This document shows, piece after piece, positions 28,417 to 59,346 of a stretch of 64,000 nucleotides of DNA; the first letter of the stretch is position 1, and the number at the start of each line of letters is the position of its first letter. The notes beneath the pieces were generated by a model that searched no databases, had not been told where the DNA came from, and saw only the letters and a program-made list of their open reading frames with translations. Both the position numbers and the translations under genes were made by a program. Source of the stretch: a virus; the IMG/VR virus record IMGVR_UViG_3300023179_000035, positions 1 through 64,000 of that record. One strand, written 5' to 3'.

Positions 28417-29880
28417 ATGGCATACGGAACTAACAAATCATGTTTATGCCTCATATGTGACGAACAATTTGATCACATGAAGAAGCTGTCAGAACACATC
28501 AAGAAAATTCACAACCTATCACCGCAGGAATACTACACCAAGTACTTCAATAATAATCTGAGGCCATCCTGCCTCATCTGCGGTGGTGAAACGAGGTACG
28601 TCAGCCTCAGCGAGGGATTCAAAAAATACTGCGCATCGGATGCCAAAGTGGCAGCTTCAATGCTTGGTAGTGCTGGCGGTAAAATTAAAAAAACGTGGAA
28701 CAAGGGAAAGACGAAAGAGGACGACGCTAGGATCCTTGAACAGTCCAAGAAAATGTCTGGGGAGGGAAATCCGTTCTACGGCAAGAAACACTTGCCTGAA
28801 TCAATTAAGCGAAATGCCGATGCGCATAGGTTAAAATTTGATGAAGTAATTGGCAGAGTATCCAGAGAAGTTTCAAGCGTTTCTGTTGTCTCTGGCTGGA
28901 AGAGCTACGAAAGCCAAAATTCTCTCCTCCGCGTTGCATGCAAGAAGTGTTTGCTTGAAGACGACGTGTCGTTTTTCAATTTAATGAGATGCTGGAGATG
29001 CAAGAATTGTGATCCTATTGGATCAAGGCAACAGCTCGACATCTCGAATTACGTTAAGTCTTTTGGTTTTATCGTTGAAGACTCAACAAAGAAAGTTATC
29101 CCTCCCCTCGAGCTGGACGTCTGGATTCCGGAGAAGATGGTTGCTATAGAATATCACGGCCTTTACTGGCACTCAGGAGGGAGAGAATCGACGTTCGACA
29201 AGCGACGTCATAGAAAAAAGTACGAAGCTTGCGCCGCAGCTGGCATTAAACTCATACAAATTTTTTCTGATGAGTGGCGTGACAAAGAGGACATCTGCAA
29301 GTCGATTATAAAGAATGCGCTAGGCAAGAATGACGTAAAGTTGAATGCTAGAGATTGCGTAGTTGAAGATGTTGATGTCACGACAGCACAAAAATTTCTT
29401 AACGACACACACATCTCCGGCTACACGAGGTGCAAGCATAAGTTTGGGCTATTCCATAAGACGCATGGCCTTGTAGGAATTGCGACCACTAGAACACCGA
29501 TCCAAGGAAGATGGGGAAGGTTATCTGAGCTGGCCAGAATGTCATTTGCTAGCGGAGTTTCTGTCCGCGGGGGTGCATCAAAGTTACTCGAAAAGGTAAA
29601 GTCCCAAGCGGTTGTAGAAGGTTTCGAAGGAGTCCTATCCTACGCAGATCTTCGATTCGGCAATGGTGCTGTCTACGAAAAGTGCGGTCTAAAGTATATT
29701 GGAGAATCTACGATTAATTACTGGTACACTGATGGCCATAAACGATTTGACAGATTTGCATTCAAAGCGCAGCCTGGAAAATCTGAGAAGCTGGTGGCAG
29801 ATGAGGCTGGCGTTCGAGCCGTGTGGGGATCAGGTAATAAAATCTACGCGTGGAAACATGATCCTTCAATCTTTCTTTAG
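28417..29880 (+). mobile_element. Hef-like endonuclease (zinc finger, NUMOD3, Vsr/DUF559-like nuclease) with C-terminal Mom-like GNAT domain; copy 1
   Basis: CLIC..H..H; GEGNPFYGKKH; ELDVWIPEKMVAIEYHGLYWH...IFSDEW; ELARM...SYADLRFGNGAVY; AT-rich relative to flanks. Confidence 0.8.
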
Positions 29881-37201: not shown

Positions 37202-37462
37202 GTCGATTAAGCCAGGCGCCTCGGTCGCCGGCGTCGATGTTAAATTTGGTGGCCTATTTGACATGGTCTGGCGAAGCCTGTCGATGAGTTACGACAGGCC
37301 ACAGCCGAAGGCGGCTTGACAGCAAAGATGCAGCTGAAAGCTATCAGACGCGATACTTACCAAGTAAGTGGCTCGAAAGAAGCGGGAAGAAACTTTCTCA
37401 CAGCATCGAAGGAAGTGAAAGTTACAACTGGATTGATCAACTCAAGGCCCTGGGAAACATGA

Positions 37463-40600: not shown

Positions 40601-43600
40601 ATGGCCGAGCAGACATTCCGTTCACCTAATTTCTTTGACAGAGAGATAGACCTCTCAGGCAAGGTTCCAACCCCTCCGACCGGGACACCTGCCGGCGTCA
40701 TTGGAACATCCAATAAGGGGCCCGCCTTCGTTCCGGTTACAGTAGGCAACTTTGATGACTTTTCGCTGAAGTTTGGTGGCCTCAACCCAGACCACCCAGC
40801 CGTGTACGCTGTCAACAGGTTCCTAGAGACCAGGCAGTCTCTCACCTTCCTCAAGGTCCTCGGGGCGGGAGCTAACTCCTCGTCAGCAGACTCTGACTAC
40901 ACCAGAACGTACGGCAGGGTCGTCAACGCAGGGTTCACGCTGCCGTCTAGCAACTCAAACGGAGGCGTCTACTTCATATCGACTACCGAGGTCCCGACCG
41001 TCAGCGAGTCGTACGGCTTTCCTATGTTCAATGACAACGACTCCTTCTCTGGCTACGACTCCGTGTCAGGCACACTGGGCTCTGCAGGCATGCAGCTCAT
41101 CAGGGGCATGGTCATGCTGCCTTCGACAGCCAGGCTACTGACGTTTGGGTCGGGCACAAACGTGACTGAGACAGACGTCAACAGCCTCAACAAAGACCAC
41201 ACGTGGCTGGCCGACTCCCCTCTGGATGGTGACGCGGGCCTGGACTACTACTTCAAGCTCGTTATATCCTCTTCAAACTCTGACTTTAAGGCCTACAACA
41301 CGTCAGACGGCATAAAGGGCGTCAAGATATTCAGCGCGTCGCTCAACCCGAGCTCGCCCAACTACATCGGCAAGATACTCAACACTGACTCCAAGAAGTT
41401 CGAGGAGAAGCAGCACTTCCTATACGCTCACTTCCCAATCGACCACCAGGTGTCGTTCCCCGTCTCGGCCTCGCTGCTGTCTGGGACGCAAAACTCTAGC
41501 TTGGTCGACACCAACATCAAGTATAGGGACCTATTTGGTCACTTTGACACCCGCTTCACGACGCCAGCCTCTCCGACGTTCATATCACAGCCCTTCGGCG
41601 ACAAGGAGCACGACCTCTTCCACTTCGAGGCCCTGGACGACGGTGAGTTCGCCAACAAGCTCTACAAGATATCTGTCGCCAACCTCAAGGTGTCAGCTGA
41701 CCCGACGAACCCATACGGAACATTCTCGGTGCAGGTCAGGGACTGGAACGACTCGGACATAACACCTTCCATCCTAGAGCAGTACGATAACTGCGACCTC
41801 AACCCAAGCTCCCCCAACTACGTCGCCAAGCTGATCGGAGACATGCGCAGGTACTTCAACTTTGACGCCTCCACGCTGGCGGAGCGCAGGGTCCTCATAG
41901 ACGGCAACTTTGAGAACGTGTCCAAGCGCGTCAGAGTCGTCATGAACGACGACGTCAAGAACAAGCAGGTCCCGGCCAAGTCGTTGCCCTTCGGCTTCAG
42001 GGGAATGCAGCTCCTCAAGACCGCTGACACCATCAGCGGCATGAGCGGCTCAATCAACGCCGCCGCGACCATCCTGCAGCGTTCTGCCGGGACGGTGTCA
42101 GCCCAGCTACCACCGATACCCTTCAGGGTCAAGCTGACGACGGGCCAGGTTAACATGTCGGGCAGCCTATTTGACACCAGCAAGTACGAGGTCCTGAAGC
42201 CTAGCCTGTACTGGGGTGTCAAGTTCGAGCGCAACACAGACATCCTGAAGGTCAACGAGGTGGTAGAGCGCAACGAGCTGCTCGACAGCTACACCAAGTT
42301 CCTTGGAATACCTGGGCTGATGACCCTGACTGACCAGGACACGGCGGACTCCCTCAACAACAACAAGTTCAGCCTGTCGAGGGTCACCTTCAACGTCACC
42401 AGCCTGGACAACATGACGCAGTCGGCCGAGTTGCACATGCTGAACACAGCCTACATCAGGAACGGCGTTCCTGACCCGAACAGCTACATGATGGTCGACA
42501 CGACGAACAATATCAGCACCCCACACGTCACCCTAGCCTCTCTTGTCAACGCCACAGACAACAGCTACACTAACGGTGTCGTCGCTGCGTCTAACTTCAA
42601 CAGGTTCGCGCAGTACACGAAGTTCACCACGTTCATGTACGGAGGCTTCGACGGCACCAACATCCTCGACAACGACTCGAGGCTCCTCAACGAGAAGTCG
42701 CTGTCTTTCGTTGAGGTCTCCTCTGACGGGTCGGCGGGCGGTGCTTCAAGCATGTATGAGATGCCGGGCTTCCCAGGCTACAACCCGTCAGGAGTCCACG
42801 GCAAGAACGCTTCAGTGATGTCCTACAAGACTGCCGCTGACATCATGACTGACCCATACGCGGTGGCCACCAACATCCTGACGATACCTGGCATCAAGGA
42901 GTCGTTCGTCACAGACTACGCGGCCGAAAAGGTCCGTAGCTACGGCCTGGCCCTCTACGTCATGGACATCACGTCCTACGACGACGACAACAAGGCGATA
43001 TTCGACGGCACCAGGGCCAAGCCAAACATCGAGAACACTGCGGCCCAGTTCGAGCAGCGCAACATGGACAACGACTACGTGGCGACGTACTTCCCCGACG
43101 TGTTCTTGGATGACGCCACCAACCGCCGCCGCGTCAAAGTCCCAGCGTCAGTCGCGGCCCTTAGCGCCCTCGGCTTCAACGACAAGGATACGTTCCCGTG
43201 GTTCGCCCCGGCCGGCTTCAACAGGGCGTCCCTTGACTTCGTCACCAACGTTCAGGTGCGCCTCAACGTCACCGACAGGGACAGGCTGTACGACGCTAAG
43301 ATCAATCCAATCGCGACCTTCCCACGCCAGGGCTTCGTCATCTACGGCCAGAAGACGGTCAAGGCCAAGAAGTCTGCCCTGGACCGCGTCAACGTCCGCC
43401 GGCTGCTCCTCGAGGTCAAGAGGATAATCGGCAACATAGCCACCAACCTGATATTCGAGCAGAACACGCCGGCCCTTCGCAATAAGTTTGTGGCAGACGC
43501 CACCGTCCAGCTGGGCCTCATCCAGGCGCAGGCGGGCATCGAGGCGTCGCAGGTCATCATGAACGAGTCGAACAACACCCAGGACGACGTCGACAACAAC

Positions 43601-43696
43601 AGGCTCAACGGGCGCGTCGTCATAGTGCCGACCCGGTCGATCGAGTTCATCGCCATAGACTTCATAGTCACAAACAGCGGCGTTCAGTTCGTGTGA
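40601..43696 (+). CDS. Tail sheath protein 1
   Basis: SPNFFDREIDLS, KGPAFVP, WFAPAGFNR, INPIATFP, GQKT, SALDRVNVRRLL. Confidence 0.95.
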   Translation: MAEQTFRSPNFFDREIDLSGKVPTPPTGTPAGVIGTSNKGPAFVPVTVGNFDDFSLKFGGLNPDHPAVYAVNRFLETRQSLTFLKVLGAGANSSSADSDYTRTYGRVVNAGFTLPSSNSNGGVYFISTTEVPTVSESYGFPMFNDNDSFSGYDSVSGTLGSAGMQLIRGMVMLPSTARLLTFGSGTNVTETDVNSLNKDHTWLADSPLDGDAGLDYYFKLVISSSNSDFKAYNTSDGIKGVKIFSASLNPSSPNYIGKILNTDSKKFEEKQHFLYAHFPIDHQVSFPVSASLLSGTQNSSLVDTNIKYRDLFGHFDTRFTTPASPTFISQPFGDKEHDLFHFEALDDGEFANKLYKISVANLKVSADPTNPYGTFSVQVRDWNDSDITPSILEQYDNCDLNPSSPNYVAKLIGDMRRYFNFDASTLAERRVLIDGNFENVSKRVRVVMNDDVKNKQVPAKSLPFGFRGMQLLKTADTISGMSGSINAAATILQRSAGTVSAQLPPIPFRVKLTTGQVNMSGSLFDTSKYEVLKPSLYWGVKFERNTDILKVNEVVERNELLDSYTKFLGIPGLMTLTDQDTADSLNNNKFSLSRVTFNVTSLDNMTQSAELHMLNTAYIRNGVPDPNSYMMVDTTNNISTPHVTLASLVNATDNSYTNGVVAASNFNRFAQYTKFTTFMYGGFDGTNILDNDSRLLNEKSLSFVEVSSDGSAGGASSMYEMPGFPGYNPSGVHGKNASVMSYKTAADIMTDPYAVATNILTIPGIKESFVTDYAAEKVRSYGLALYVMDITSYDDDNKAIFDGTRAKPNIENTAAQFEQRNMDNDYVATYFPDVFLDDATNRRRVKVPASVAALSALGFNDKDTFPWFAPAGFNRASLDFVTNVQVRLNVTDRDRLYDAKINPIATFPRQGFVIYGQKTVKAKKSALDRVNVRRLLLEVKRIIGNIATNLIFEQNTPALRNKFVADATVQLGLIQAQAGIEASQVIMNESNNTQDDVDNNRLNGRVVIVPTRSIEFIAIDFIVTNSGVQFV

Positions 43697-43745: not shown

Positions 43746-46700
43746 ATGAGCAGCACTTACAGAGTTAGCCCAGGCGTCACCTCACGTGAGATAGACCTAA
43801 CAGGACCGACTACGACTGGGCCGAGGGGGGTGCCTGCAGGAGTCATAGGCACATCACAGATGGGACCTGCCTTCGTCCCGATCACCGTGGCCAACATCTC
43901 AGAGCTAGAGAACAGGTTCGGTGCCTTTGACAGGACAGAGTTTGGAATCCTGGCCGCCCGTGAGTGGCTGTCCAACGCTCAGGCCCTGACATACCTCAGG
44001 GTGCTGGGCGTTGGGACGGGCGAGATGAGCATGGTCAACGACAACGACTCCCCTGGGTCGGGAGCCGGCAGGGTAAAGTACGCTGGCTTCGTAGTCGGTA
44101 ACAAGCTTCCCGGAGCCGCCCTTGGCGGCACCTCGTGGGGTGACCTGGTCGGTAATCCATACGCTTCAGGTAGCGGCCCTGGCGGCAGGACCTACTTCTT
44201 AGGAGCTTTCATGGGGGCAGACGTCAACGTCGCCTCGGTGGGAGACCAGCTCTTTACAAGCGGCGTCCTCGCTGGCACAGCACCGCAGCCTTTCATCGTA
44301 GGAGTCCTGATGGCTCCAAGCGGGGTCGTCCTGACTCTGTCGTCGACGTACGGCGGTGGAAACTCTGACGTCGCCTCGTCTAACGCTTACCTGCCTAGCG
44401 GGTCAAGTGTTGGAGACGTGGTCCTCAAGAGCCCAGCCTCGACGATGTCTGGGATGAGCCAGTTCGTCATGCTGCTCAACGGGCACGCTACAGGAACGAC
44501 TGCCATAACAGCCTCGTTGTCCAGGAACAGCAACTCCTACTTCGGCTCCACCTTCAACACAGTTCCTACGAAGATGCAGGAGGCCGGTCACTACCTCTAC
44601 GCTGCCTGGGACTACCCAGGCCTGTCTGTGACAGGGTCCAGCCTGATGTCAGGGTCTGTCACCAGCTCTTACTCTAATCCAAAGTACGTTGAGCCTATCG
44701 TCTTCCTGCTGACTGGCTCCAACGACCAGAACCACGTCAGCGCCACGTCACCTAACTACGAGAACTTTGAGACACGCTTCGGCCACGCAGTCACTCCGAT
44801 GGTAGTGTCGCAGCGCATCGGCGGCAAGCCCACTGACCTCTTCCGCCTCCACGCCCTGTCAGACGGCGCCGGCGTCGCGAAGAATTACAAGTTCTCTATC
44901 GAGAATATAACGCCCTCCCCCGACCCTGCCTACCTATACGGCACGTTTGACCTCCTCGTCAGGTCGTGGAATGACACTGACTTTGAGAAGACGGTCTACG
45001 AGAAGTACACGGGCCTGTCGCTCGACCCAACAAACGACAGGTATATCGCCAAGGCGATCGGCGACGTCAACACCTACTACGACTTTGAGCGCGACACAAA
45101 CTCCCAGAAGCTCGTCGTCGAGGGGGACTACAACAACAACTCTAGCATCGTGAGGGTAGAGGTAAGCGACGATGTGTCCCTGGGGCTCGCCGCCGCAGAG
45201 TGCTTGCCGATGGGGTTCAGGGGACTCCCACACCTCGTCACTTCGGGCTCTGCCCTCAAGGTCGACGGCCTAGACCTAGCCGTGACAGGCTCTGGTGTCT
45301 CATCCTTCAGCAGCCTACTGAAGTCTGCCCGGCAGGCTCCGGTTCCGTACGTCCTGTCAATATACAAGGGCCTCAGCACGAAACGCACAGCAGACCCCAA
45401 CAGGTACTGGGGCGTCGCATTCGACCTACCAGTGCTAACAAACGACACAGGCGTCCAGCTGGGGCGCCACAAGAACCAGTTCGTGTCTGACTTCACCAAG
45501 TTCTTCCCACAGTTCATCGTGGGCAATCCCAACTTTGTCGTCGGCGACAATGCTGGTGTGGCTGACGACGTCAACTTCGGGGTGGTGGACGCCGACAGGT
45601 TCAACAACAACCTCTTCACGCTGGAGAACATCGCAGTCGTCACATCGTCCAAGACGCCGCACATGGCCGATCCAAACGCCTGGCAGAACGCTGAGTATAT
45701 GCGCAACGGCATCAAGCCTGCTGACGACCGCAGGATGCTAACCGTCTCTGACCTGACGACAGACAACAAGGGCTACGCCAAGTTCACCTTCGTGATGCAG
45801 GGCGGCTTCGACGGCGTCAACCTGTTCGACGAGCACTCGGCGGCCATCGACGGCGTAGCGGTGGAGTGCGACATGAGGCAGCCCCTACGGCACGACGTCA
45901 ACGGCGCCAACGTCAAGGCCTACACCAAGGCCCTGGACGTCATGAAGAACGTGACCAACGTCGACATACAGCTCCTCGCCATGCCAGGCATCAGGAACAC
46001 ATACGTGACTGACAGGGCCCTGGCCGCCGTCGAGTCCCGGTTCGACGCCATGTACCTGATGGACGTGGAGGCCTACGACCAGGGCGACAACCTCCTGCTA
46101 CCTGGCACGGAGAACTTCATGGACAACGGGCTGCCGGTGGAGAAGGTCGACGTCAGCTACACTGCGCAGAACTTCGCAGACCGCGGCATCAACTCCTCCT
46201 TCGGCGCTGCGTACTTCCCAGACCTCAGGTACGTCCACCCCAGCACTGCCGCTGAGGTCCAGGTACCACCGACTGTGGCTGTCCTCGGGGCCCTGTCCCT
46301 CAACGACAAACTGGGACACCCGTGGTTCGCTCCTGCCGGATACACCCGCGGGGTGCTGCCCAACGTGACAGACCCGACTGTTCCCCTGACAGACGCTGAC
46401 ATGGACAGGCTGTACGACAGGGACGTCAACATGGTCATCAAGAAGGCAGCCCCGGCCGGCACGGTGGTCTGGGGCCAAAAGACGCTGTTGAAGGCCGCCT
46501 CGGCCCTGGACCGCGTCAACGTCCGCCGCCTCTTGATAGAGGTACGACGCCAGGTCAGGGACATCGCCCAGACCATCCTCTTCGAGCCCAACAGGGCCGC
46601 CACCCTGGCCCGTTTCTCTGCTGCCATCACCCCGAGGCTGCAGACCATCCAGCAGCAGGCCGGCCTCGACAGGTTCAAGGTCATCATCGACTCCTCCACA

Positions 46701-46817
46701 ACGACGCAGGCCGACATCGAGAATAACACGGTCCGCGGCAAGATATACCTGCAGCCAACGAAGAGCGTCGAATTCGTGTCCTTGGACTTCGTTGTAACAA
46801 ACAACATCCAGCAGTGA
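43746..46817 (+). CDS. Tail sheath protein 2
   Basis: SPGVTSREIDL, GPAFVP, WFAPAGYTRG, WGQKTL, SALDRVNVRRLL. Confidence 0.95.
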   Translation: MSSTYRVSPGVTSREIDLTGPTTTGPRGVPAGVIGTSQMGPAFVPITVANISELENRFGAFDRTEFGILAAREWLSNAQALTYLRVLGVGTGEMSMVNDNDSPGSGAGRVKYAGFVVGNKLPGAALGGTSWGDLVGNPYASGSGPGGRTYFLGAFMGADVNVASVGDQLFTSGVLAGTAPQPFIVGVLMAPSGVVLTLSSTYGGGNSDVASSNAYLPSGSSVGDVVLKSPASTMSGMSQFVMLLNGHATGTTAITASLSRNSNSYFGSTFNTVPTKMQEAGHYLYAAWDYPGLSVTGSSLMSGSVTSSYSNPKYVEPIVFLLTGSNDQNHVSATSPNYENFETRFGHAVTPMVVSQRIGGKPTDLFRLHALSDGAGVAKNYKFSIENITPSPDPAYLYGTFDLLVRSWNDTDFEKTVYEKYTGLSLDPTNDRYIAKAIGDVNTYYDFERDTNSQKLVVEGDYNNNSSIVRVEVSDDVSLGLAAAECLPMGFRGLPHLVTSGSALKVDGLDLAVTGSGVSSFSSLLKSARQAPVPYVLSIYKGLSTKRTADPNRYWGVAFDLPVLTNDTGVQLGRHKNQFVSDFTKFFPQFIVGNPNFVVGDNAGVADDVNFGVVDADRFNNNLFTLENIAVVTSSKTPHMADPNAWQNAEYMRNGIKPADDRRMLTVSDLTTDNKGYAKFTFVMQGGFDGVNLFDEHSAAIDGVAVECDMRQPLRHDVNGANVKAYTKALDVMKNVTNVDIQLLAMPGIRNTYVTDRALAAVESRFDAMYLMDVEAYDQGDNLLLPGTENFMDNGLPVEKVDVSYTAQNFADRGINSSFGAAYFPDLRYVHPSTAAEVQVPPTVAVLGALSLNDKLGHPWFAPAGYTRGVLPNVTDPTVPLTDADMDRLYDRDVNMVIKKAAPAGTVVWGQKTLLKAASALDRVNVRRLLIEVRRQVRDIAQTILFEPNRAATLARFSAAITPRLQTIQQQAGLDRFKVIIDSSTTTQADIENNTVRGKIYLQPTKSVEFVSLDFVVTNNIQQ

Positions 46818-46838: not shown

Positions 46839-47168
46839 ATGACAATGAAACTCACAGCCAACCAGCTCCGCCAGATCATCAAGGAGGAAGTCGATGCTAT
46901 GATGCCTGCCGCTGGAGGCAAAGACCCACAGCGCTTCCTCCACGGCTACGAGTCCGGTCACCCGATGGACGACGAGGGCTACATGGCCAAGTCCCGGATG
47001 GTGGATATCAAGGAGATGGCTGGGACGATCTGTGGCCTGGTGGAGGAGGGCGACCAGCTCCCAGCATGGGTGCAAGACCTGATCGCCAAGGCCCATGAGA
47101 ACCTTGAGCACGTCAAGGACTACATGGCCGGGGACGAGGCCCTGCGTGATGCCGGGGAGACAGACTGA
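46839..47168 (+). CDS. Small protein with MKLTANQLRQIIKEE leader; putative head-internal protein
   Basis: Shared leader; DEGYMAKS...LPAWVQ.LI..A...L helical domain. Confidence 0.7.
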   Translation: MTMKLTANQLRQIIKEEVDAMMPAAGGKDPQRFLHGYESGHPMDDEGYMAKSRMVDIKEMAGTICGLVEEGDQLPAWVQDLIAKAHENLEHVKDYMAGDEALRDAGETD

Positions 47169-47203
47169 CGCTGGCTGTGGCTCCGCCCTTCCTGTGAGAT
47201 AGG

Positions 47204-47240
47204 TCCTGGTGGTCCACGAGGCCACCAGGATTTTTCTTTT
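47204..47240 (+). terminator. Intrinsic terminator
   Basis: TCCTGGTGGTC / GGCCACCAGGA stem followed by TTTTTCTTTT. Confidence 0.85.
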
Positions 47241-47392
47241 CCTCTGGACGGTAGAAACCCACGCCTACTGTGGGAGGATTATCCTGGTGTCATCTAGATA
47301 CTTAAGCGACAGCCGATGATACGACCTGACACATTCCTCCGCCGCGTCATTCGTGAAGAGGCCAAGAGGGTCCTACACCCCAGCCATTTCGT

Positions 47393-48244
47393 GTGGGGCT
47401 CGTCCAGATGGGCTGCGGGACTGACCCCGCCCAGAACCTGGAGAGGGCTGTCGAGCTGACGCGTGAGGCAGCCCGGCTAGGCGCCAACGTCGTGTGTCAC
47501 CAGGAGCTGTTCCTGACGCAGTACTTCTGTCGCGTCCAGGACCCCCGTTCCTTTGGCCTGGCCGAGAGCGTTCCAGGCCCCACGACGGGTGCCATGAGTC
47601 GCCTCGCCAGGGAGCTGGGCGTCGTCATCGTGGTCCCTCTCTTCGAGAGGGCCGGCGCCCGCTTCTACGACACGGCTGTCATCATTGACGCTGACGGCTC
47701 CCTGGCGGGCAAGTACCGCAAGACGCACCTGCCGGAGGAGCCGCTGTACCACGAGAAGTTCTACTTCTCCCCTGGAGACCTTGGGTTTAGGGCCCACGAC
47801 ACACGGTTCGGTCGTATCGGCGTGCTCGTCTGTTGGGACCAGTGGTTCCCAGAGGCGGCCCGCCTGACTGCCCTGGACGGGGCAGACGTGCTGCTGTACC
47901 CCACAGCTATCGGGTGGAGCTCTGCTGACAGGGACCAGTACGGGGAGGCTGACCTGTCTGCCTGGGAGACAGTGCAGCGGGGCCACGCCATCTCTAACGG
48001 CGTCTATGTCGTGGCCGCCAACCGGACAGGGAGAGAGGGTCCACCAGGGCAAGACATCCAATTCTGGGGCTCGTCTTTCGCTGTCGACCCACACGGGCGG
48101 GTGGTGGCCAGGGCCTCCAGGGACGGCCAGGGGGTTTTAGTCGTTGACATCGACCCCTGGGAGGTCGCTGAGGCCCAACGACAGTGGCCCTTCTTTCGGG
48201 ACAGGCGGGTGGACGCCTACGGCGGGCTGGTTGGCGGCAGGTGA
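47393..48244 (+). CDS. Carbon-nitrogen hydrolase (N-carbamoylputrescine amidase-like); true start uncertain
   Basis: Catalytic E-K-C in HQELF, YRKTHLP and VCWDQWFPE; YPTAIGW; WPFFRDRR. Confidence 0.88.
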   Translation: MGLVQMGCGTDPAQNLERAVELTREAARLGANVVCHQELFLTQYFCRVQDPRSFGLAESVPGPTTGAMSRLARELGVVIVVPLFERAGARFYDTAVIIDADGSLAGKYRKTHLPEEPLYHEKFYFSPGDLGFRAHDTRFGRIGVLVCWDQWFPEAARLTALDGADVLLYPTAIGWSSADRDQYGEADLSAWETVQRGHAISNGVYVVAANRTGREGPPGQDIQFWGSSFAVDPHGRVVARASRDGQGVLVVDIDPWEVAEAQRQWPFFRDRRVDAYGGLVGGR

Positions 48245-50119
48245 CACGTTGAGGCGGTAGACCAGGTTGGAGCACCCCCAGATCTTGACGACGCCAGCCT
48301 CGTCTGCCACCTGGGCCTCCGTCATGCCGCGGGAGGGGTCAGCCTTGAACTTGAAGCGATCGAACCGCTTGTGATAGTCTGTCCACCAATAACGTGGACT
48401 AGTCTTTTTTTCCAAGATGAATCCTGACAGGACGTACCCGTTACCATCGCCTCCGAGTCGGGTGTCAACGTAAGATATGACGCTTGAAACGCCAGTTACC
48501 CTCGCCTCTTGAACAACTTTTTTGACCAACCTGCTCATTCCACCTGGGACCACTAGGTTAACCCTAGAGCAAAAGCGGGCTATCTCCAATGATTCGCTGT
48601 ACTTTTTGTGGAACGGTCGCCGTGCTGAGATTGCGGCCACCAGCTCTCCGTCTTTCGTCCTAAGACCGAAAGAAAAAGAGGCATTGACATCGCCATCGAG
48701 GTGGTTGAGCTCAAAAAATTCGCGACGTTCCTCTGGGCTGAGGCCGACGACGTCGCAGTCTCGAGCGTTGACCCTATCGTTGATCATCTGCAGCTTTGAT
48801 AGGATCGTCGACTTTACGACCTCCCGCTTGTCGTACCACTCGTCTTCGAAGATATGGACGAGAGACACCCCGTGCTTTTCACAAGATAAAGACTTTTGCT
48901 GGTGGTACCTAGCGTCTTTGCCTGGTTGTGTTTCACCGTGCCAGAATAGTCCATTAAACTCTATGGCAACCATCTTCTCCGGAACGAAGATGTCTAACTG
49001 CTTCTTACCGTCCAGGATTCCGACAACGTTCCGGCCAACGTAAAGGCCAAGCGACTGAAGCCAGTCAGCGATCTCATTCTGGCCACGCGACCCTATGGGA
49101 GTACACTTGGGGCACCTGTCTGCTCGCGCGCGGTCAAATGTGACTGCATCAGACCACCCACAAGACTTGCACCTGACGAGGATAGACGAGACGTAGACAT
49201 TTTTATAGCTTTCTATCTCGACGAGCTCTACTGCTTGGTTGCCTGACAACTTTTCTCTAACCACATCTTCTGACCAGTGGACGTGCTGGTACTCCTTCAT
49301 GGCGTCACGATTAGCCCAAAACTTGTCGATGCGTGGGTCTTCGGCTGCAGTTTTTCCAGCGTGCCACGCCTTGACACGTCCGGACTCATATGCTTGCCGG
49401 AGGGATTCATTCTTCTGCTTGACGCGATCGTCGACCTCTTCAGACAGGCCCTTGTGCCACTGCGACCTTATGCCGTTTGCAAAGTCTTCCTTCAAGCGCT
49501 GGGAAAACGCCAGTAGCCTTTCGTCGGTCTCTTTGGTTAGGCCCTTCGACCAGGCCTTTAGCTCGCCTTCATCAAAGGCCTTCTTCCTTCCTACGCTAGT
49601 TGCGGCAGCGCGGGCTGCCACCCGTTCGTCAGTTTCTTTGGTCAACCCCTTTGACCACCCTGTAGTTCCCCTCAGGGCGGCAGACCGCTTTGCGGCTATC
49701 TCCAACGCCTTCTCTTCTTCGTAGACTGAGTAGATGCTCGCGTTGTGACCGCATAGGACAGACGAGTACCCCTTTGCCCATCCAACCCACGTAGTCTGCC
49801 TTCCGCACCCACACTTGCAAAGTGCTGGACTAGCGTCCTTTAGTCGCAGCCACAGCTCCTCTGGAGAAACGCCGTGTCTCGCAGCGTGCTCTTCGACGCC
49901 TTCCTTAGAGGTCCTAAACTCTTCAGTGCACAGAGAACATTTTTCTGTCCCGGCGTTCTTCTTCCCATTATTGGACCGCGAGCACTTAACACAAGGAGAA
50001 CCCGCCTTCTCGGCCGCTCTACACTTTGCCTTGGACTTATGCTCGACGGTCGAGCCGCACTGGGGGCAGTGTCTTGACCATAAGGTCTCTTTTTCTTTAG
50101 CTTCCATCTTTTCTAGCAT
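48137..50119 (-). mobile_element. Hef-like endonuclease with Mom-like GNAT domain; copy 2
   Basis: Zinc fingers, CKCGCG, WSKGLTKETDER repeats, LDIFVPEKMVAIEFNGLFWH...IFEDEW, EIARF...SYVDTR...GNGY. Confidence 0.8.
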
Positions 50120-50219
50120 TGTACTTCATTTAATTAAGCTTTTGCATACGAAAAAAGTCGTATATGAACGTGCAGCTATACGTAACTTTGGCACTTAAAG
50201 TGCGAAGAGGAGACACACC

Positions 50220-50708
50220 ATGGCCGAGACACTCGACGTTTCATCAATGATTCCGAATAAGTTCGAACCAAAGCGCAAAAATAGATGGGTATTAATGATA
50301 GAAGGCATTGACGCCTACATCGTCAAGAGCGCCTCGCGCCCCACCTTCACCACGGACGAGGTTGAGATACCGTTCATCAACTCCCGCCGCTACGTGGCCG
50401 GCATGACCAAGTTTGAGACCATCTCGGTCAACCTCCACGACCCCATCGCTCCCTCGGGCGCCCAGCAGGTCATGGAGTGGATCCGTCTCCACTTCGAGTC
50501 GGTGTCGGGCCGCGCTGGCTACGCTGACTTCTACAAGAGGGACATCCAGCTTAAGATGCTTGATCCTGTCGGTACAGTGATAGAACTTTGGGACATCAAA
50601 GGCGCTTTCATTACATCGGCCAACTTCGGTGAGCTCGCGTATGATGGCGCAGATCCACAGGAGATCCAGCTCACGATTAGGTTCGACAACTGCGTGCTGC
50701 AGTTCTGA
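50220..50708 (+). CDS. Tail tube protein (gp19-like)
   Basis: FEPKRKNRW, SASRP, V.EW, YKRDI.L.MLDPVG..IE.W.IKGAF; GAGGAG SD. Confidence 0.9.
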   Translation: MAETLDVSSMIPNKFEPKRKNRWVLMIEGIDAYIVKSASRPTFTTDEVEIPFINSRRYVAGMTKFETISVNLHDPIAPSGAQQVMEWIRLHFESVSGRAGYADFYKRDIQLKMLDPVGTVIELWDIKGAFITSANFGELAYDGADPQEIQLTIRFDNCVLQF

Positions 50709-50765
50709 TTCGATAAAAATACCTACTGGGTTGCACAACTTCGAAGGCTGTGGTACATTTATGCC

Positions 50766-52418
50766 ATGGCCTTCGAACGCATTCGCTGCCCCCGCTGCGA
50801 CCTAACATTTGGACAAGAAGCTCGGTTCCTCGACCACCTGGTCGATGTCCACGGGATCCCGGATCATCTAGCCCTGTACCTTGAGCTCCACCACTGTGGC
50901 ATTCACCCGACCTGTCAGTGCTCGTCTGATTGTCAGGAGAAGCTGTCTTGGTCCGGGTGGAAGAAAGGGTTCCTGTCAAAGTTCGTCCGTGGCCACAACG
51001 CTCGCGTCGACTCTGTCTACCTCGACCCCGCACGCCAGGCTGAGTTCGCCAAGAAGAGGGCCGACGGCTACGCTGGCGGTAAGTACAAGGTCTGGAACGA
51101 CGGTCTGACCAAAGAGACGTCTGCGAAGGTTGCAGGTATGGCCGTGAAGACGTCTGCCACCCTTCAGGAGCTGTACTCTTCTGGTTATAACTCTTGGCAG
51201 AGTGGGAAGACGAAGGAAGAAGACCCCCGTGTTGCCAACATGGCCGCGTCCAGGGTTGCAGCGTTACGAGCGGGTGAGATCCATGTTTGGAACAAGGGCC
51301 TGACAAAGGAGGATGACCCGCGTGTTGAGCTGTTGTCGCAGAAGCTTTCAGCCTTAAAGCAGGCTTACGACCCGCGTCGCTTAACGCCGGCGGAGCTGCT
51401 GAATCGAGTCGAACAGTTTCCGCAGTTCTCACTCGTCACCCCGCCTAGTGAGTACCGCAACAAGTACCAGCGACTCAAGTTCAAGTGCATTGAATGTGGG
51501 ACCGAGCAGGAGAAGAACCTCATGATGCTAGAGTCTACTCCCGTCTGCTTCTCCTGCCACCCCAAAGAGTCCAAGGGCCAGCTGGAGCTCCTGGAGTTCG
51601 TCCGGTCCCTTGGGGTGGAAGCTGCCTCCAACGACAGGACGGTCCTGGCTCCCCTGGAGGTGGACGTCTGGGTCCCGTCCCACAAGTTCGGTGTGGAGTA
51701 CAACGGCCTCTACTGGCACTCCTCCCTCGTCATCGCAGACCAGAAGTACCACCAGGCCAAGCACGACGCTGCCCGAGCGGCAGGAGTCAGTCTCTTCAGC
51801 GTCTACGAGGACGAGTGGAGGGACAGGCGTCCCGTCGTGGAGGGCATGCTACGCCACCGCCTCAAGATGCCTGTCGAAGTGTTGGACGCCCGCAAGCTGA
51901 GGGTGGAGCAGCTGGACTCGGCCGTCGCTACAGGCTTCTTCCAGGCCTCCCACCTGGAGGGGGCGACACGCAGCGTCGCATCTTTCGGCCTCGTCGATGG
52001 GTCCGGCCGCGTGGTGGCCGCTTCTTCCCTCCGCCGCCCCTTCCACAAGCGGCACTCGGACACGCTTGAGGTGGCCAGGTCAGCCACCCTGCCTGGCGTC
52101 GCAGTCAGGGGCTGGCTAGGGAAGCTGACGCCTCACCTGGCCCGCTACGCTTCTTCTGCTGGCATGAAGGGCCTGATGACATACGTCGACGGCCGCGTCG
52201 GCGCCGGCGTTGGCTACGAGGCAGCCGGGTGGAAGCTGGAGCGGGCCTCTACCGGCCCCCGCTTCTGGTGGACAGACTTCGAGCGCAGGTACAACCGCTT
52301 TAAGTTCAAGGCCGATAAGTCCCGTGGCATGACGCAGGCCCAGGTGGCCCAGGAGGCGGGGGTCGTCGAGATCTATGGGTGCTCCAACTCCTCCTGGCGA
52401 CTTGACGTCGTACCGTAG
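50766..52418 (+). mobile_element. Hef-like endonuclease with Mom-like GNAT domain; copy 3
   Basis: C2H2 finger, WNKGLTKEDDPRV repeats, EVDVWVPSHKFGVEYNGLYWH...VYEDEW, EVARS...TYVDGR...GVGY; TTGCAC-N17-TACATT upstream. Confidence 0.8.
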
Positions 52419-52478
52419 GTCCCGCTGCAGGCCATCAGCTCCCCCGTTCCCAGATATTTAAACATCAGGGAGTTTGAC

Positions 52479-55400
52479 ATGTCAATATCAGCGAAGTACA
52501 CACCTGGCCAGGGTCTTGTCCAGTTCAATGGCGAGGATGGGGGCGTCGACTTTGGCGGCGCCCCTGTCAGTGGCTCTTTTGTCGGCGCCTTCAGCGGCTC
52601 CCACACCGTCGTCGGCGATGGATCGCCTTTCCTGGTGGCCGGGGCGAACGTCGTCATCACCACCGGGTCCAATGGGTCTATCACAGTAGCGGCCCCGGCC
52701 GTGCCGGCCTCCCCCGTCGGCCTTGACAAACAGGTCCAGTTCAATGACAGCGGCTCTCTGGCCGGCGACCCTGGCCTGACGTACGACAGGTACGATGGCC
52801 TCCTGACGGCGACGAAGGTCGGCACAACTTCCATCACGGCGGCCAGCGTCATTGTCTCGGGCACCACCGGTGGGCCGGGTGGAGGCTACCTCCAGATGCT
52901 ACCCGTCGATGCCGCGGGATCCATCCCGGCTAACCTGACCGCTTCATACGTCTACACCTCAGGCTCCACCAACGACCTCTATTTCACGCAGTACCAGGGA
53001 CCATACACCAACACCACACGTCTCCGGTGGCTGGAGAGCTACATGAGCACCGGCATCCTACACGGCGGCGTGGTATCCACGACCCCGGGAACAACGACAT
53101 TCAGCGTCGCTGCCGGTGAGGGAATCGTCGTCGCCCAGAACGCCTCCACTTCATCGTCACCGTACCCGACCATAAAGCTGGTCAAGTGGGATAATTTCGT
53201 AAACGTGCCGCTGGCGTACTCAGCCTCCGCCAAGATCACATACATTGGCATTGGTCCCGACGGGGACCTGATACAACAAACTCTTCCGTGGGGCTCCATC
53301 AACATCAATCAACACGATGAGGCGATTGACCTGGCTGCCGTCTTGCACCTCTCCGGAAATCTCACCACCGGTGTCTTCAATGCCCCGCAGGTCTCCTACG
53401 CCTCTAACCAGCAAACTGACGACTTCTTGCGTGCCTTTGGGCCCATGAAGCTATCGGGCCACACACTGGAAGCCTCAGGCTCCACGCTGGGCATCGTAAA
53501 GGCGGCCGGCAGGTCTTTCAAGCTGGGTGCCAACTACACGGTCGACCCGAGCCATCCCTCGACAATCGTCGAGGACACACCGGTGACTGTCTCCAAGATC
53601 GCTCGCTACTACGTCAGCGGCTCCACGCCCATCATCGACGTTGGCCCCGGGGCGGCAGGTTACACTTACATCGACCCGACACACTACAACAACAACGGCA
53701 CGCTCACCCTCGTCCCGAGCGGGTCCTGGACAATCCAACGCGTCTTCTGGGTGCCAAACTCTCCGACGGGCCTCTTCCTCGTCTACTACGGCAACACGGC
53801 CTACGCTGACGCATCCTCAGCCCAGGGTGGCATCAACAACGAACCGTTCATCGAGGCGCCCAACTCTGCTCAGAACGCGATCCTCTTGGGGTACATCATC
53901 CTCAGAGAGGACTGCACGGACCTCTCTGACGGGTTGGTCATCATCCAGCAAGCCGGGCTCTTCAGGCAGGTCGGTGGCGTAGGCGTCAGCGCCCAGCCAA
54001 CGGTTCCCACCCAACTGCAAGAGCTCGGAGACGTTTCCATCAGCGCCGGCTCCACGGGCGATATGTTGGTCTTCAATCAGACGACGGGCTTCTGGAGCAA
54101 CTCAAAGACACTCCAGAGCTTCACGGTCGGCACCGCCAACACGACTACGACCAACGCCACGACTGTGAACGCGTCGTACTTGACAGGCTCTCTCACGAAG
54201 CTGTCTGATGGATCGTCCTACCTCGTGGCCGGAGGAAACATGAGCGTCGTGACCGGCTCTAATGGGTCAGTCACGTTAGCCACGGTCAACAGCGGCACGA
54301 TACACGGAGTGACGGCCGGAACAGGCCTGACTGGCGGAGGAACATCAGGCGTCATCGTGGTGAACCTTTCGAACACCGGATCGGCCGGAACATACGGATC
54401 CGCTTCGCAAGTTCCCGTGTTCGTGACGGATCCGCAGGGTAGAGTAACCGCGGTATCAAACACGTCAATTCAGATAACCGAATCTCAGGTCACTGGCCTG
54501 GTGACCGACCTGGGGAACATAACGGGTTCTATTAATTCATTGTCTAGCTCGCTGGCTTCCCAGAAGGCCGACAAGATCACGACGATATCAGCTGGAACCG
54601 GGCTGGCTGGTGGTGGAGACCTCTCTGCAAACCGCACCATATCGATGCCCAACGTTGGGACCGCCGGGACCTACGGCTCCGCCGCGCTTGTCCCTGTCTT
54701 CACCACCGACGCGCAGGGCAGGGTTACAGCCGTGACCAACACTTCTGCCTCGCTGGATGCCTCCCAGGTGACCTCAGGAATTCTTTCTGTCGCCAGGGGT
54801 GGTACTGGATTGTCTTCTTCCGGATTATCTGGAAGCATCCTCACGAGCAACGGGACGGGTTGGGCCAGCTCGGTCCTGACCATCAACTCAGCCACGGCGG
54901 TCAACAACTCCGCTACTGCGTCGATATCTGTGGCTGACCCCACCCACTCCCATCCAGTATCATCGACCACAGCGGTCAATAACTCTGCCACGGCGTCGAT
55001 CTCGGTCACAGACCCGACCCACTCACACCCAATCTCTTCAACCACAGCCACCGTCCAGCCCCTGACTCTGGCGGCGCACGAGTCGTTTAACATCGCACAG
55101 AACATCGGCACCACCCTCGCTACGATCACCTTACCCGGTTCTACACCAGTCAGCCCATCGGCTCAGCCTGGAGTGCCAAGAAACATACAGGTCAACTTTG
55201 GCAACAACTGGAACGGCGGAAACATAACGGTGGCCGGCACAGACGTCTTTGGAAATGTGGTGTCAGAGACCTTCACGTCAAATCCCGGCAACCTCGCCGT
55301 CGGAACAAAGATCTTCTCTCTCATCAACGCCAACGGTATCACCCACACCTTGAACGGTACAGGCGGAGCTGGGCATAACGCAACGGTCCAGCTTGACTCC

Positions 55401-58473: not shown

Positions 58474-59346
58474 ATGTCAGACGACCGCGAGAATCGCAAC
58501 GCAGTGTTCCAGGGACAGGTTTCAGCCCCGCCGGGAGTCCAGCCGGGCATGCCGACGACGACGATGGCCGACAGGGTCAAGGCGGACTTTGGCCTCGACA
58601 TTCCGGTGGAGCTCGTCCCCCTGCCGTCCAGCGGCAGGGTCTACCCGCAGGGGTCAGCCCTGGCCGACAGGGAAGCCTTGGAGATTCGGGCCATGACAGC
58701 CCGCGAGGAGGACATCCTGACCAGTAGGGCCCTCCTGAAGAAGGGCACCGCCATCACTGAGCTCATCCGGTCATGCATCGTCGACAAGAGCGTCAACGTG
58801 TCTGACATGCTGATCGGTGACAGGAACGCCCTGATGGTGGCCGTTAGGATCACGGGGTACGGCCCTGAGTACCCAGTGGAGCTGGAGTGTCCAGACTGCG
58901 ACACTAACACCCAACACACCTTCAACCTGGCCGAGCTCCAGATCCGCAGGCTGGCGATCGACCCCGTGGTCGAGGGCAGCAACGCCTTCGAGTTCGCCCT
59001 GCCCGTCTCCAAGAAGAACGTCCGCTTCAAGTTCCTGACGGGACGGGACGAGGACGACATGATGGCCCTGGCCGAGAAGCAGAAGAAGCATGGGCTCGGC
59101 AACGAGTCAGCCGTCACCACAGCGCTACAGTACGCTATCGTGGCTGTGGACGGCGTGACCGACAGGGCCAAGATCTCTAACTTCATCAAGAGCATGCCGG
59201 CCCGCGACTCTAGGGCCCTTCGCACTTACATCAAAGACAACGAGCCAGGCATCGTGATGCGGCAGGACGTGGCCTGCGACAAGTGCGGCCACTCAGAGGA
59301 GGTCGACATGCCGCTCGGCGTCAACTTTTTTTGGCCTTCGACATGA
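58474..59346 (+). CDS. Tail assembly chaperone/baseplate hub assembly protein (gp26-like)
   Basis: LPSSG..Y, MTAREEDILT, RITGYG..Y...CPDC, LPVS, CDKC...NFFWP; GGAG SD; lies before the tape measure. Confidence 0.8.
   Translation: MSDDRENRNAVFQGQVSAPPGVQPGMPTTTMADRVKADFGLDIPVELVPLPSSGRVYPQGSALADREALEIRAMTAREEDILTSRALLKKGTAITELIRSCIVDKSVNVSDMLIGDRNALMVAVRITGYGPEYPVELECPDCDTNTQHTFNLAELQIRRLAIDPVVEGSNAFEFALPVSKKNVRFKFLTGRDEDDMMALAEKQKKHGLGNESAVTTALQYAIVAVDGVTDRAKISNFIKSMPARDSRALRTYIKDNEPGIVMRQDVACDKCGHSEEVDMPLGVNFFWPST

Follow-up and report, generated by a model that had tools for sequence, protein, structure and literature searches.

Why does a short tail tube gene whose middle consists almost entirely of G/C-ending codons contain two tracts in which A/T-ending codons are frequent, and what have these tracts to do with the endonuclease genes that lie on either side of it? 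The question is raised by a 64,000-nucleotide stretch of viral DNA (positions 1 to 64,000 of IMG/VR record IMGVR_UViG_3300023179_000035; hereafter the window), which is the first part of a single contig of an uncultured freshwater phage, 116,394 bp long and with a G+C content of 56%. The tube gene is flanked here by two predicted homing endonuclease genes (HEGs), HEG-L on its left and HEG-R on its right; their coordinates, and those of the other features discussed, are collected in Table 1. Homing endonucleases are thought to drive the exchange of genes between phages, and the direct evidence for this comes nearly all from a few cultured phages such as T4. We consider it probable that the tracts are the trace of homing-linked allele turnover, in which cleavage-resistant target regions of the tube gene would have been carried along by co-conversion.

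Two tracts of A/T-ending codons in the tube gene

The identity of the tube gene follows from several comparisons. It matches phrog_4542 ("tail tube protein") at 9e-32 and, by tblastn, annotated tube proteins, the best being that of Microcystis phage Mel-JY01 (47% identity); its score against Pfam Phage_T4_gp19 (PF06841), 22.7 bits, is under the 28.2 cut-off of that family. In the tail module it stands 3' of two sheath genes and 5' of the baseplate hub gene.

A preliminary description, drawn from the letters of the window, had claimed that the middle of this gene uses almost only G/C-ending codons and that both of its ends are recoded. The claim about the middle is borne out, since 72 of the 79 codons of the interior end in G or C. 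The proportion is 14/30 in codons 1-30 and 18/37 in codons 110-146, and it returns to 15/16 in codons 147-162. The A/T-ending strings quoted in that description are present as well (at 50241-50297 on the 5' side and 50559-50615 on the 3' side), while the limits it set, 50119 and 50766, prove to be the first bases of the flanking genes rather than the ends of the tube gene itself.

Expectations were computed from the synonymous codon usage of the genome given each amino acid, with informative codons counted. By this measure the expected number of codons ending in G or C is 14.8 of 21 for the 5' tract, which has 6 (P 5e-5), 24.8 of 35 for the 3' tract, which has 16 (P 0.001), and 53.4 of 76 for the interior, which has 69. 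When 5000 simulated genes are scanned in the same way, the corrected p value is 0.0018 for a single dip and 0.0002 for a pair of separate dips; the preliminary description had allowed that the shift in GC3 (the fraction of codons ending in G or C) might not be significant, and on the two-dip value it is. Fisher tests yield 2e-6 for the 5' tract against the middle and 1e-6 for the 3' tract against the middle, with boundaries that were picked after looking. Compared with the consensus of endonuclease-free relatives, the 5' tract also holds synonymous changes that require two steps, AGA in place of CGC and TTA in place of CTC.

Two Hef-type genes of separate descent

Both neighbours of the tube gene had been called Hef-like beforehand, and profile and homology searches lead to the same assignment. 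HEG-L and HEG-R match phrog_3339 ("homing endonuclease") at 3.5e-74 and 3.9e-50, respectively, and tblastn with HEG-R returns genes annotated "Hef-like homing endonuclease," a name given by the depositors themselves, in Bacillus phage AR9, Klebsiella phages, and others (28-34% identity, E 1e-30 to 1e-33). HEG-L also matches Pfam MTES_1575 at 7e-4, under the cut-off of that family. The three copies of the window were aligned with 23 genes of relatives, and the resulting 26 sequences have a common layout: an N-terminal C2H2-type finger, a Cys-rich module, W.KGLTKE.D.R repeats, a four-Cys ribbon, the nuclease core, and a C-terminal domain. Within the core the residues D, E, H, K, and D are invariant, and the core residues are conserved in 26/26 sequences. 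Over some 50 residues, a profile of this family matches I-Bth0305I (PDB 3r3p_A) in its catalytic domain (E 1.7e-4), and the C-terminal part of the profile matches GCN5-type acetyltransferases (E 3e-4); the Pfam Mom family matches the third copy in the window (28417-29880) at 1.2e-6.

HEG-L has the N-terminal C2H2-type finger, the W.KGLTKE.D.R modules, the four-Cys ribbon, the core, and a GNAT/Mom-like C-terminal domain, and it keeps the D, E, H, K, and D of the family (D376, H394, and D426 among them). HEG-R retains E298, D300, E311, H318, K332, and D349; residues were mapped to the published EDxHD motif by the pattern of the alignment. From these features we identify both as free-standing homing endonuclease genes of Hef type (EDxHD, Vsr-like) that look intact. 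GC3 is 0.63 in HEG-L and 0.77 in HEG-R.

The two genes are just 33-34% identical to each other in sequence. In a protein tree, one branch (SH-aLRT support 98) divides 25 left-position genes, with HEG-L inside their clade, from 13 right-position genes, with HEG-R inside theirs. Two position-specific lineages mean two separate elements, each tied to its own slot, rather than a gene and its duplicate, in keeping with the earlier proposal of two independent events.

Endonuclease presence and codon usage among relatives

A search with the tube protein yielded 80 loci each in viral contigs and in metagenome contigs, and 127 unique relatives remained after removal of identical tube genes. Their tube proteins are about 75-89% identical to that of the window, with nucleotide identity of at most 78%; the metagenome scan with the tube protein found no relative above 83% protein or 78% nucleotide identity. 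The smallest layout, sheath, tube, and hub, is found in L002 and L031, and it marks both flanks of the tube gene as variable slots. Upstream of the tube gene, at a distance of 100-160 nucleotides (nt), 27 of the 109 relatives that could be scored there have a minus-strand Hef-type gene; downstream, 12 of 87 scorable relatives have a Hef-type gene, and 7 relatives of known state have both.

Relatives without the endonucleases, a comparison that the preliminary description had proposed, lack the A/T-ending ends, and carriers have them on the matching side (p values here and below, apart from one phylogeny-aware paired test, ignore relatedness). The difference in GC3 between codons 1-30 and the interior is -0.119 with a left gene (n=27) and -0.004 without (n=82; p 1e-4). 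Where there is no Hef-type right gene the corresponding values are -0.163 (n=14) and -0.001 (n=46), and in the second collection alone they are -0.15 and -0.012 (p 0.012). The eight most negative 5' differences of the first collection, that of the window included, all belong to loci bearing the left gene. Regression of 5' GC3 on that of the interior gives a slope of 0.55 +/- 0.05 for left-gene-free loci and 0.20 +/- 0.12 for left-gene-bearing ones.

On the other side, codons 110-146 differ from the interior by -0.105 with a right gene (n=12) and by +0.020 without (n=75; p 0.001). With low-GC loci dropped, this difference is -0.127 for 10 Hef-type loci and -0.043 for 17 with an empty slot (p 0.03), and GC3 over codons 123-131 is 0.46 for the former and 0.73 for the latter (p 0.0005). 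The right gene has no effect at the 5' end where the left gene is absent (p 0.56).

Some lowering of GC3 at the start of genes is general. The first 30 codons of genes across the genome average 0.64 against 0.72 for the rest, and endonuclease-free relatives show an effect of about -0.12 in the first nine codons of the tube gene. Such an effect would be expected if the 5' tract were an embedded expression signal, serving an unfolded mRNA or holding a promoter for HEG-L, with the 3' tract holding one for HEG-R. The general effect, however, extends over about 9 codons at about -0.1, not over 30 codons at -0.44.

Where the linked divergence sits

A sliding scan of nine codons measured third-position divergence from the endonuclease-free consensus, corrected for the interior divergence of each locus. 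The left peak covers codons 12-20, with an excess of 0.33 when 22 carriers are compared with 63 left-gene-free loci, a value reached in 0 of 2000 label permutations. The right peak covers codons 123-131, with an excess of 0.28 when 12 carriers of a Hef-type right gene are compared with 52 others (permutation p 0.003). Both peaks fall inside tracts that had been named before the scan was made. We regard these two stretches as candidate recognition or immunity regions for the two enzymes. In the right-hand one, 4 of the 8 informative codons of the tube gene studied here deviate from the consensus of relatives that have no Hef-type gene in this slot.

The sites of the tube gene associated with the left gene are nt 39, 42, 51, 57, and 60, and the strongest single one lies in codon 14, at its third base. 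This codon reads AAA in 16/17 and 8/10 left-gene-bearing relatives in the two collections, compared with 3/45 and 6/37 of those without the gene. The window itself has G at the third base of this codon. The other exceptions (L003/L005 and L150) have left genes that belong to the subclade of HEG-L (support 99), and they also have the variants of the window at codons 12, 13, 20, and 21; since the exceptions share both subclade and variants, the tube allele goes with the endonuclease subclade.

Trees of separate segments of the tube gene locate this co-inheritance. On the tree of the interior, the state of the left gene requires 14 changes for 18 rows, with a mean of 15.9 after shuffling, a scatter that would fit either mobility or frequent loss. 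On the tree of nt 1-90 it requires 8 changes, which none of 500 shuffles matched, and on other segments 13-15. That the number is low on the tree of nt 1-90 only indicates that the first 90 nt have been inherited together with the left gene and the rest of the tube gene has not.

A single 5' allele common to all left-gene-bearing loci was considered and rejected, because pairwise identity is not raised there.

Within 47000-53500, the junctions of the window recur with 0 differences in contigs from three runs of a second study of freshwater metagenomes (pieces listed in Table 1), so that the arrangement and the tracts are stable across samples. In one run, a co-occurring relative has nine differences within 50258-50294, eight of them from A/T to G/C, and at least seven of those eight restore codons of the endonuclease-free consensus. 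Contigs of four public runs include none that joins across either endonuclease gene, and contigs cannot show absence. Related tube alleles co-occur with this phage in the same freshwater samples.

What fills the slots

The left slot is empty in some relatives and in others holds a Hef-type gene or small open reading frames (ORFs). The right slot, re-classed over the 127 relatives, is empty in 20 and holds a TnsA-like gene in 13, an HNH-like gene in 27, and a Hef-type gene in 11; 35 have other genes or an unresolved state, and for 21 the sequence is too short to tell. The short genes downstream of the tube gene in relatives are full genes with other nuclease domains, and many of the loci counted above as lacking a right gene carry one.

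The TnsA-like gene encodes about 302 amino acids (aa) and matches Pfam PF08722 at 3.7e-14 (13 loci, e.g., L011:1116-2024). The HNH-looking gene encodes about 265 aa and ends in CxxC..HH..CxxCH, with no Pfam match (27 loci, e.g., L032:5559-6356). At their N-termini both kinds share a C2H2 finger and a Cys-rich module with the Hef-type genes, so that one DNA-binding module is seen with three interchanged nuclease domains.

Gene ends beside other endonuclease genes

The contig has at least seven endonuclease-like genes. At 14/14 of the ends of ordinary genes that border seven of them, GC3 is below that of the gene interior. The mean difference between end and interior is -0.155 for these 14 ends and -0.051 for 160 other ends (p 0.0009), and with the tube gene removed from the comparison p is 0.003. 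Several other ORFs with the strongest GC3 contrast in the genome also border endonuclease genes.

Homing-linked allele turnover as the probable explanation

These results can be accommodated by a scheme in which the tube gene, a short conserved gene between two insertion slots, each with its own Hef-type lineage, would serve as the target of both enzymes. In a mixed infection, each enzyme would cut the tube gene of a relative lacking that enzyme, the left one in or close to codons 12-20, the right one in or close to codons 123-131. With the carrier genome as template, repair of the break would bring in both the endonuclease gene and the stretch of the tube gene next to it. If the enzyme cuts non-carriers, carriers must hold an uncut tube allele with many synonymous differences from the common one, and in a gene of about 90% G/C-ending codons either synonymous divergence or import from a lower-GC donor would appear as an A/T-ending tract. 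The "recoded" ends of the preliminary description may thus be a linked allele imported by co-conversion rather than a change made in place. I-Bth0305I tolerates most single substitutions in its site (PMC3239194); if the same holds here, escape would need several changes, which would fit tracts of several codons. What is observed is the tracts, the identities and separate lineages of the two genes, and the association among relatives; from these we infer cleavage, where precisely it would occur, and when and in which direction transfer would have taken place.

A number of observations weigh against this scheme. The 3' tract does not touch HEG-R, from which it is separated by 16 codons, 15 of them G/C-ending, and a 57-nt spacer; the earlier claim that each recoded end adjoins a Hef-like gene therefore fails for the 3' tract, which is internal. 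L001, the closest relative (89% aa identity), has a right-position gene and yet no 3' dip (0.78 vs 0.78). The left gene is also linked to a 3' deficit where there is no Hef-type right gene (p 0.003), for which adjacency alone fails to account. The state of the right gene on the tree of the 3' segment requires 9 changes, a number as low in 500/500 shuffles, and so does not cluster. The right-hand evidence is the weaker of the two and comes from 10-12 loci. On the left, loci bearing the gene are not more alike in the 5' segment (mean pairwise identity 0.739 vs 0.78). The disregard of relatedness in the p values belongs here too, and the phylogeny-aware paired test, with 4 usable pairs, has a consistent direction and a median p of 0.25.

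Further such points concern the enzymes and their source. In HEG-L, Gln374 replaces the nearly invariant first Glu of the core, and this gene and the hydrolase gene, which is on the opposite strand, overlap by 108 nt at their 3' ends (48137-48244); judged by this substitution and by a tail running into the neighbouring gene, HEG-L may be impaired. No donor was found among viral contigs for either gene, HEG-L having one distant locus there and HEG-R a best match of 55% identity, and the best homologues overall have 48% and 55-56% protein identity to the two genes. A near-identical endonuclease-free tube allele was not found (best tube match 78% nucleotide identity), and three degenerate DNA patterns made from the unusual codons of the tracts had no match in viral contigs. 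The contrast in GC3 between adjacent windows of the tube gene ranks 9th among the 106 ORFs of the genome.

Alternative explanations

Of the alternatives, mosaicism at the flanks of the slots survives best, although we think it rather unlikely. It supposes no cleavage in the tube gene: the flanks would be hot spots of exchange, the ends of the gene would be patches received from relatives that are often of lower GC, and the endonucleases would be passengers or would cut elsewhere. Both slots are indeed highly variable, and many relatives have uneven GC3 along the tube gene (L043, for example, has 0.44 in the interior and 0.78 in codons 110-146). Loci with a TnsA-like or HNH-like gene are richer in G/C than those with an empty slot at codons 110-146 (+0.073 vs -0.043, p 0.0004), which indicates that composition follows the type of neighbour and obeys no A/T rule, and the 3' deficit linked to the left gene counts in its favour as well. 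Against it, the linked divergence is focused in windows of about 27 nt instead of being spread evenly from the gene end inwards, and the alleles at codons 12-21 differ by endonuclease subclade. The deficit at codons 123-131 is specific to Hef-type occupants when these are compared with truly empty slots, and gene ends adjacent to endonucleases differ from other ends across the genome. This explanation overlaps with homing-linked turnover, since co-conversion is itself recombination, and the two differ only in where, or whether, a break is made.

It is improbable, in our judgment, that the pattern reflects chance and shared ancestry, that is, local GC3 noise in a patchy genome with associations inflated by relatedness. 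GC3 is at or below 0.5 in 10% of all 30-codon windows of the genome, so that such heterogeneity is not unique to the tube gene, and the modest rank of the gene among ORFs and the choice of tract boundaries after looking point the same way; the phylogeny-aware test is underpowered, and support in the segment trees is poor (8 of 66 inner branches starred). The scan-corrected simulation speaks against noise, as do the replication of the left-side association in a second, non-redundant collection, the position of both scan peaks within tracts named in advance, the endonuclease neighbours of several other high-contrast ORFs, and the scatter of the left gene over the interior tree.

Least probable of all are the embedded expression signals introduced above, for although the spacers of 100 and 57 nt are short enough that promoters could sit in coding sequence, and such signals would likewise predict an association with endonuclease presence, a promoter would be shorter than the tracts (about 70 and about 110 nt), a scan of both strands of 49900-51000 for sigma-70-type promoters and intrinsic terminators gave nothing (phage-specific promoters would be missed), and synonymous alleles specific to endonuclease subclades are not expected under a shared promoter.

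Other features of the locus and the genome

Table 1. Features of the tube locus and its surroundings (positions in the window)
Feature	Position	Strand	Remarks
Tail sheath paralogue 1	40601-43696		1031 aa; in tandem with the next
Tail sheath paralogue 2	43746-46817		1023 aa
109-aa ORF			after second sheath paralogue, before carbon-nitrogen hydrolase gene
Carbon-nitrogen hydrolase gene	47393-48244		Pfam CN_hydrolase 6.7e-64
HEG-L	48137-50119	minus	660 aa; transcribed away from tube gene
HEG-L nuclease core (predicted)	48836-49000		~aa 374-428; alignment
Spacer HEG-L/tube	50120-50219		100 nt between divergent start codons
Tail tube gene	50220-50708	plus	162 codons, 162 aa; 489 nt
5' tract, A/T-ending codons frequent	50238-50309	plus	codons 7-30; codon usage
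Candidate HEG-L recognition/immunity region	50253-50279	plus	codons 12-20; scan peak
G/C-ending interior	50310-50546	plus	codons 31-109; codon usage
Internal 3' tract, A/T-ending codons frequent	50547-50657	plus	codons 110-146; codon usage
Candidate HEG-R recognition/immunity region	50586-50612	plus	codons 123-131; motif LWDIKGAFI; scan peak
G/C-ending last 16 codons and stop	50658-50708	plus	between 3' tract and HEG-R
HEG-R	50766-52418	plus	550 aa; same strand as tube gene, 57-nt spacer from it
HEG-R nuclease core (predicted)	51654-51818		~aa 297-351; alignment
Gene after HEG-R			1089 aa
Two genes after the 1089-aa gene		minus	
Baseplate hub gene	58474-59346		after the two minus-strand genes
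Zero-difference contig pieces, HEG-L to tube	49709-50372, 50035-50318		freshwater metagenomes
Zero-difference contig pieces, tube 3' tract	50450-50661, 50487-50666		freshwater metagenomes
Zero-difference contig piece, HEG-R start	50756-51360		freshwater metagenomes

The tandem sheath pair is also found in most relatives. The hydrolase gene and the 109-aa ORF (46839-48244), which lie between the sheath and tube genes, have this position in this phage only: across the first set of 71 unique relatives, tblastn gave no hydrolase match next to the tube gene, and it matched the 109-aa ORF in L075 only. The final ~35 residues of HEG-L are without counterpart in homologues. The spacer between HEG-L and the tube gene contains an AGGAG ribosome-binding site ahead of the tube start and, at 50146-50163, the perfect palindrome ATACGA-N6-TCGTAT. 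A search for enriched k-mers in intergenic sequence returned a single 7-mer, ATACTTA, present in 6 intergenic gaps among 10 copies in the genome (gaps 47169-47392 and 37202-37462, for example), which may be part of a phage promoter. The 4.5 kb of DNA around the tube gene, searched against phage records, gave no match.

Endonuclease genes are associated with other parts of the contig as well. The third Hef-type gene, at 28417-29880, has a GC3 of 0.48, much below its surroundings; the gene upstream of it (26421-28313) has an interior GC3 of 0.90, and its last ~45 codons fall to 0.53-0.67. A Vsr-like nuclease gene at 79863-80819, with a GC3 of 0.39, divides the ribonucleotide reductase large subunit (genome 78984-84345; L121:14984-20000) into two ORFs, the second of which contains, at ~aa 253-523, an HNH-matching insert that may be an intein. 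The DNA polymerase is likewise in two ORFs, 98197-99126 and 100116-102605 (genome 97004-103597; L122:13004-19597), with a GIY-YIG endonuclease ORF just upstream (97004-98182) and an endonuclease-like ORF downstream (102509-103597).

Relation to known systems

In the intronless homing of T4, as reviewed in PMC2988022, free-standing endonucleases act on neighbouring genes, for example SegG on gene 32 and MobE on nrdB. The endonuclease gene lies between conserved genes, is patchy among relatives, and has its flanking markers co-converted, and cleavage is expected in the conserved gene beside it, as much as hundreds of bases away from where the element is inserted (PMC2988022). The arrangement proposed here is alike in each of these respects. 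It differs in that the nuclease is EDxHD/Vsr-like, whereas those of T4 are GIY-YIG or HNH, in that two elements flank a single 0.5-kb structural gene, and in that it is known from sequence comparison.

Hef itself, from the T4-related phage U5, is named in the same review as an endonuclease that cuts nrdB (PMC2988022). GenBank phage records label homologues of both window genes "Hef-like homing endonuclease." The window genes have long zinc-finger and repeat modules at the N-terminus and end in a GNAT/Mom-like domain, and their target would be the tail tube gene, not nrdB. Phage enzymes of Hef type belong to the EDxHD family with a Vsr-like fold, and structure 3r3p is that of I-Bth0305I (PMC3239194). 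The window genes resemble I-Bth0305I in having a Vsr-like core, although the profile match covers only about 50 residues; of the conserved E/D/H/D residues, as assigned by alignment, HEG-R has all and HEG-L has all but the first. Unlike that enzyme, which the same text portrays as intron-encoded, cutting next to its own insertion site, and bearing NUMOD-type N-terminal motifs (PMC3239194), they are free-standing and about twice as long.

A third parallel is with the HEG-islands of Barth, Dunham and Seed 2023, which are characterized as regions of >10 kb with >90% nucleotide identity between otherwise dissimilar phages (PMC10448857). As in those islands, an essential structural gene is bracketed by endonuclease genes, in the order HEG-L, tube, HEG-R, and cognate slots are filled by different endonuclease classes with DNA-binding and nuclease modules shuffled (PMC10448857). 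The present cargo, in contrast, is one 489-nt gene, and with no relative above 78% nucleotide identity it falls outside the size and identity of HEG-islands. A full-text literature search, its hits judged by titles and the beginnings of abstracts, gave no description of this case among the papers listed.

Significance

The mechanism and the enzyme family are already known, and no new kind of system is revealed; what is new is this case, the two candidate recognition windows, and the three-way swapping of nucleases on one DNA-binding module. To our knowledge, the targets of Hef-type enzymes are almost unknown. Metagenomic relatives provide a natural experiment in which the same structural gene occurs with and without each of two endonuclease genes, and from their comparison two stretches of 27 nt emerge as the likely sites of recognition.

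A broader possibility, which we put forward tentatively and with some doubt, is that the tube gene is a contested target of modular homing elements, in which one zinc-finger module is joined to a Vsr-like EDxHD plus GNAT/Mom-like, a TnsA-like, or an HNH-like nuclease, the elements competing for one slot and each keeping a linked synonymous "immunity allele" of the most conserved tube motif. Were this so, the codon usage of a structural gene would record the last selfish element that converted it, and dips in composition beside endonuclease genes would be a general detector of past homing in uncultured phages. Apart from that broader possibility, the results suggest that codon-usage dips by endonuclease genes could flag past homing in uncultured phage genomes.

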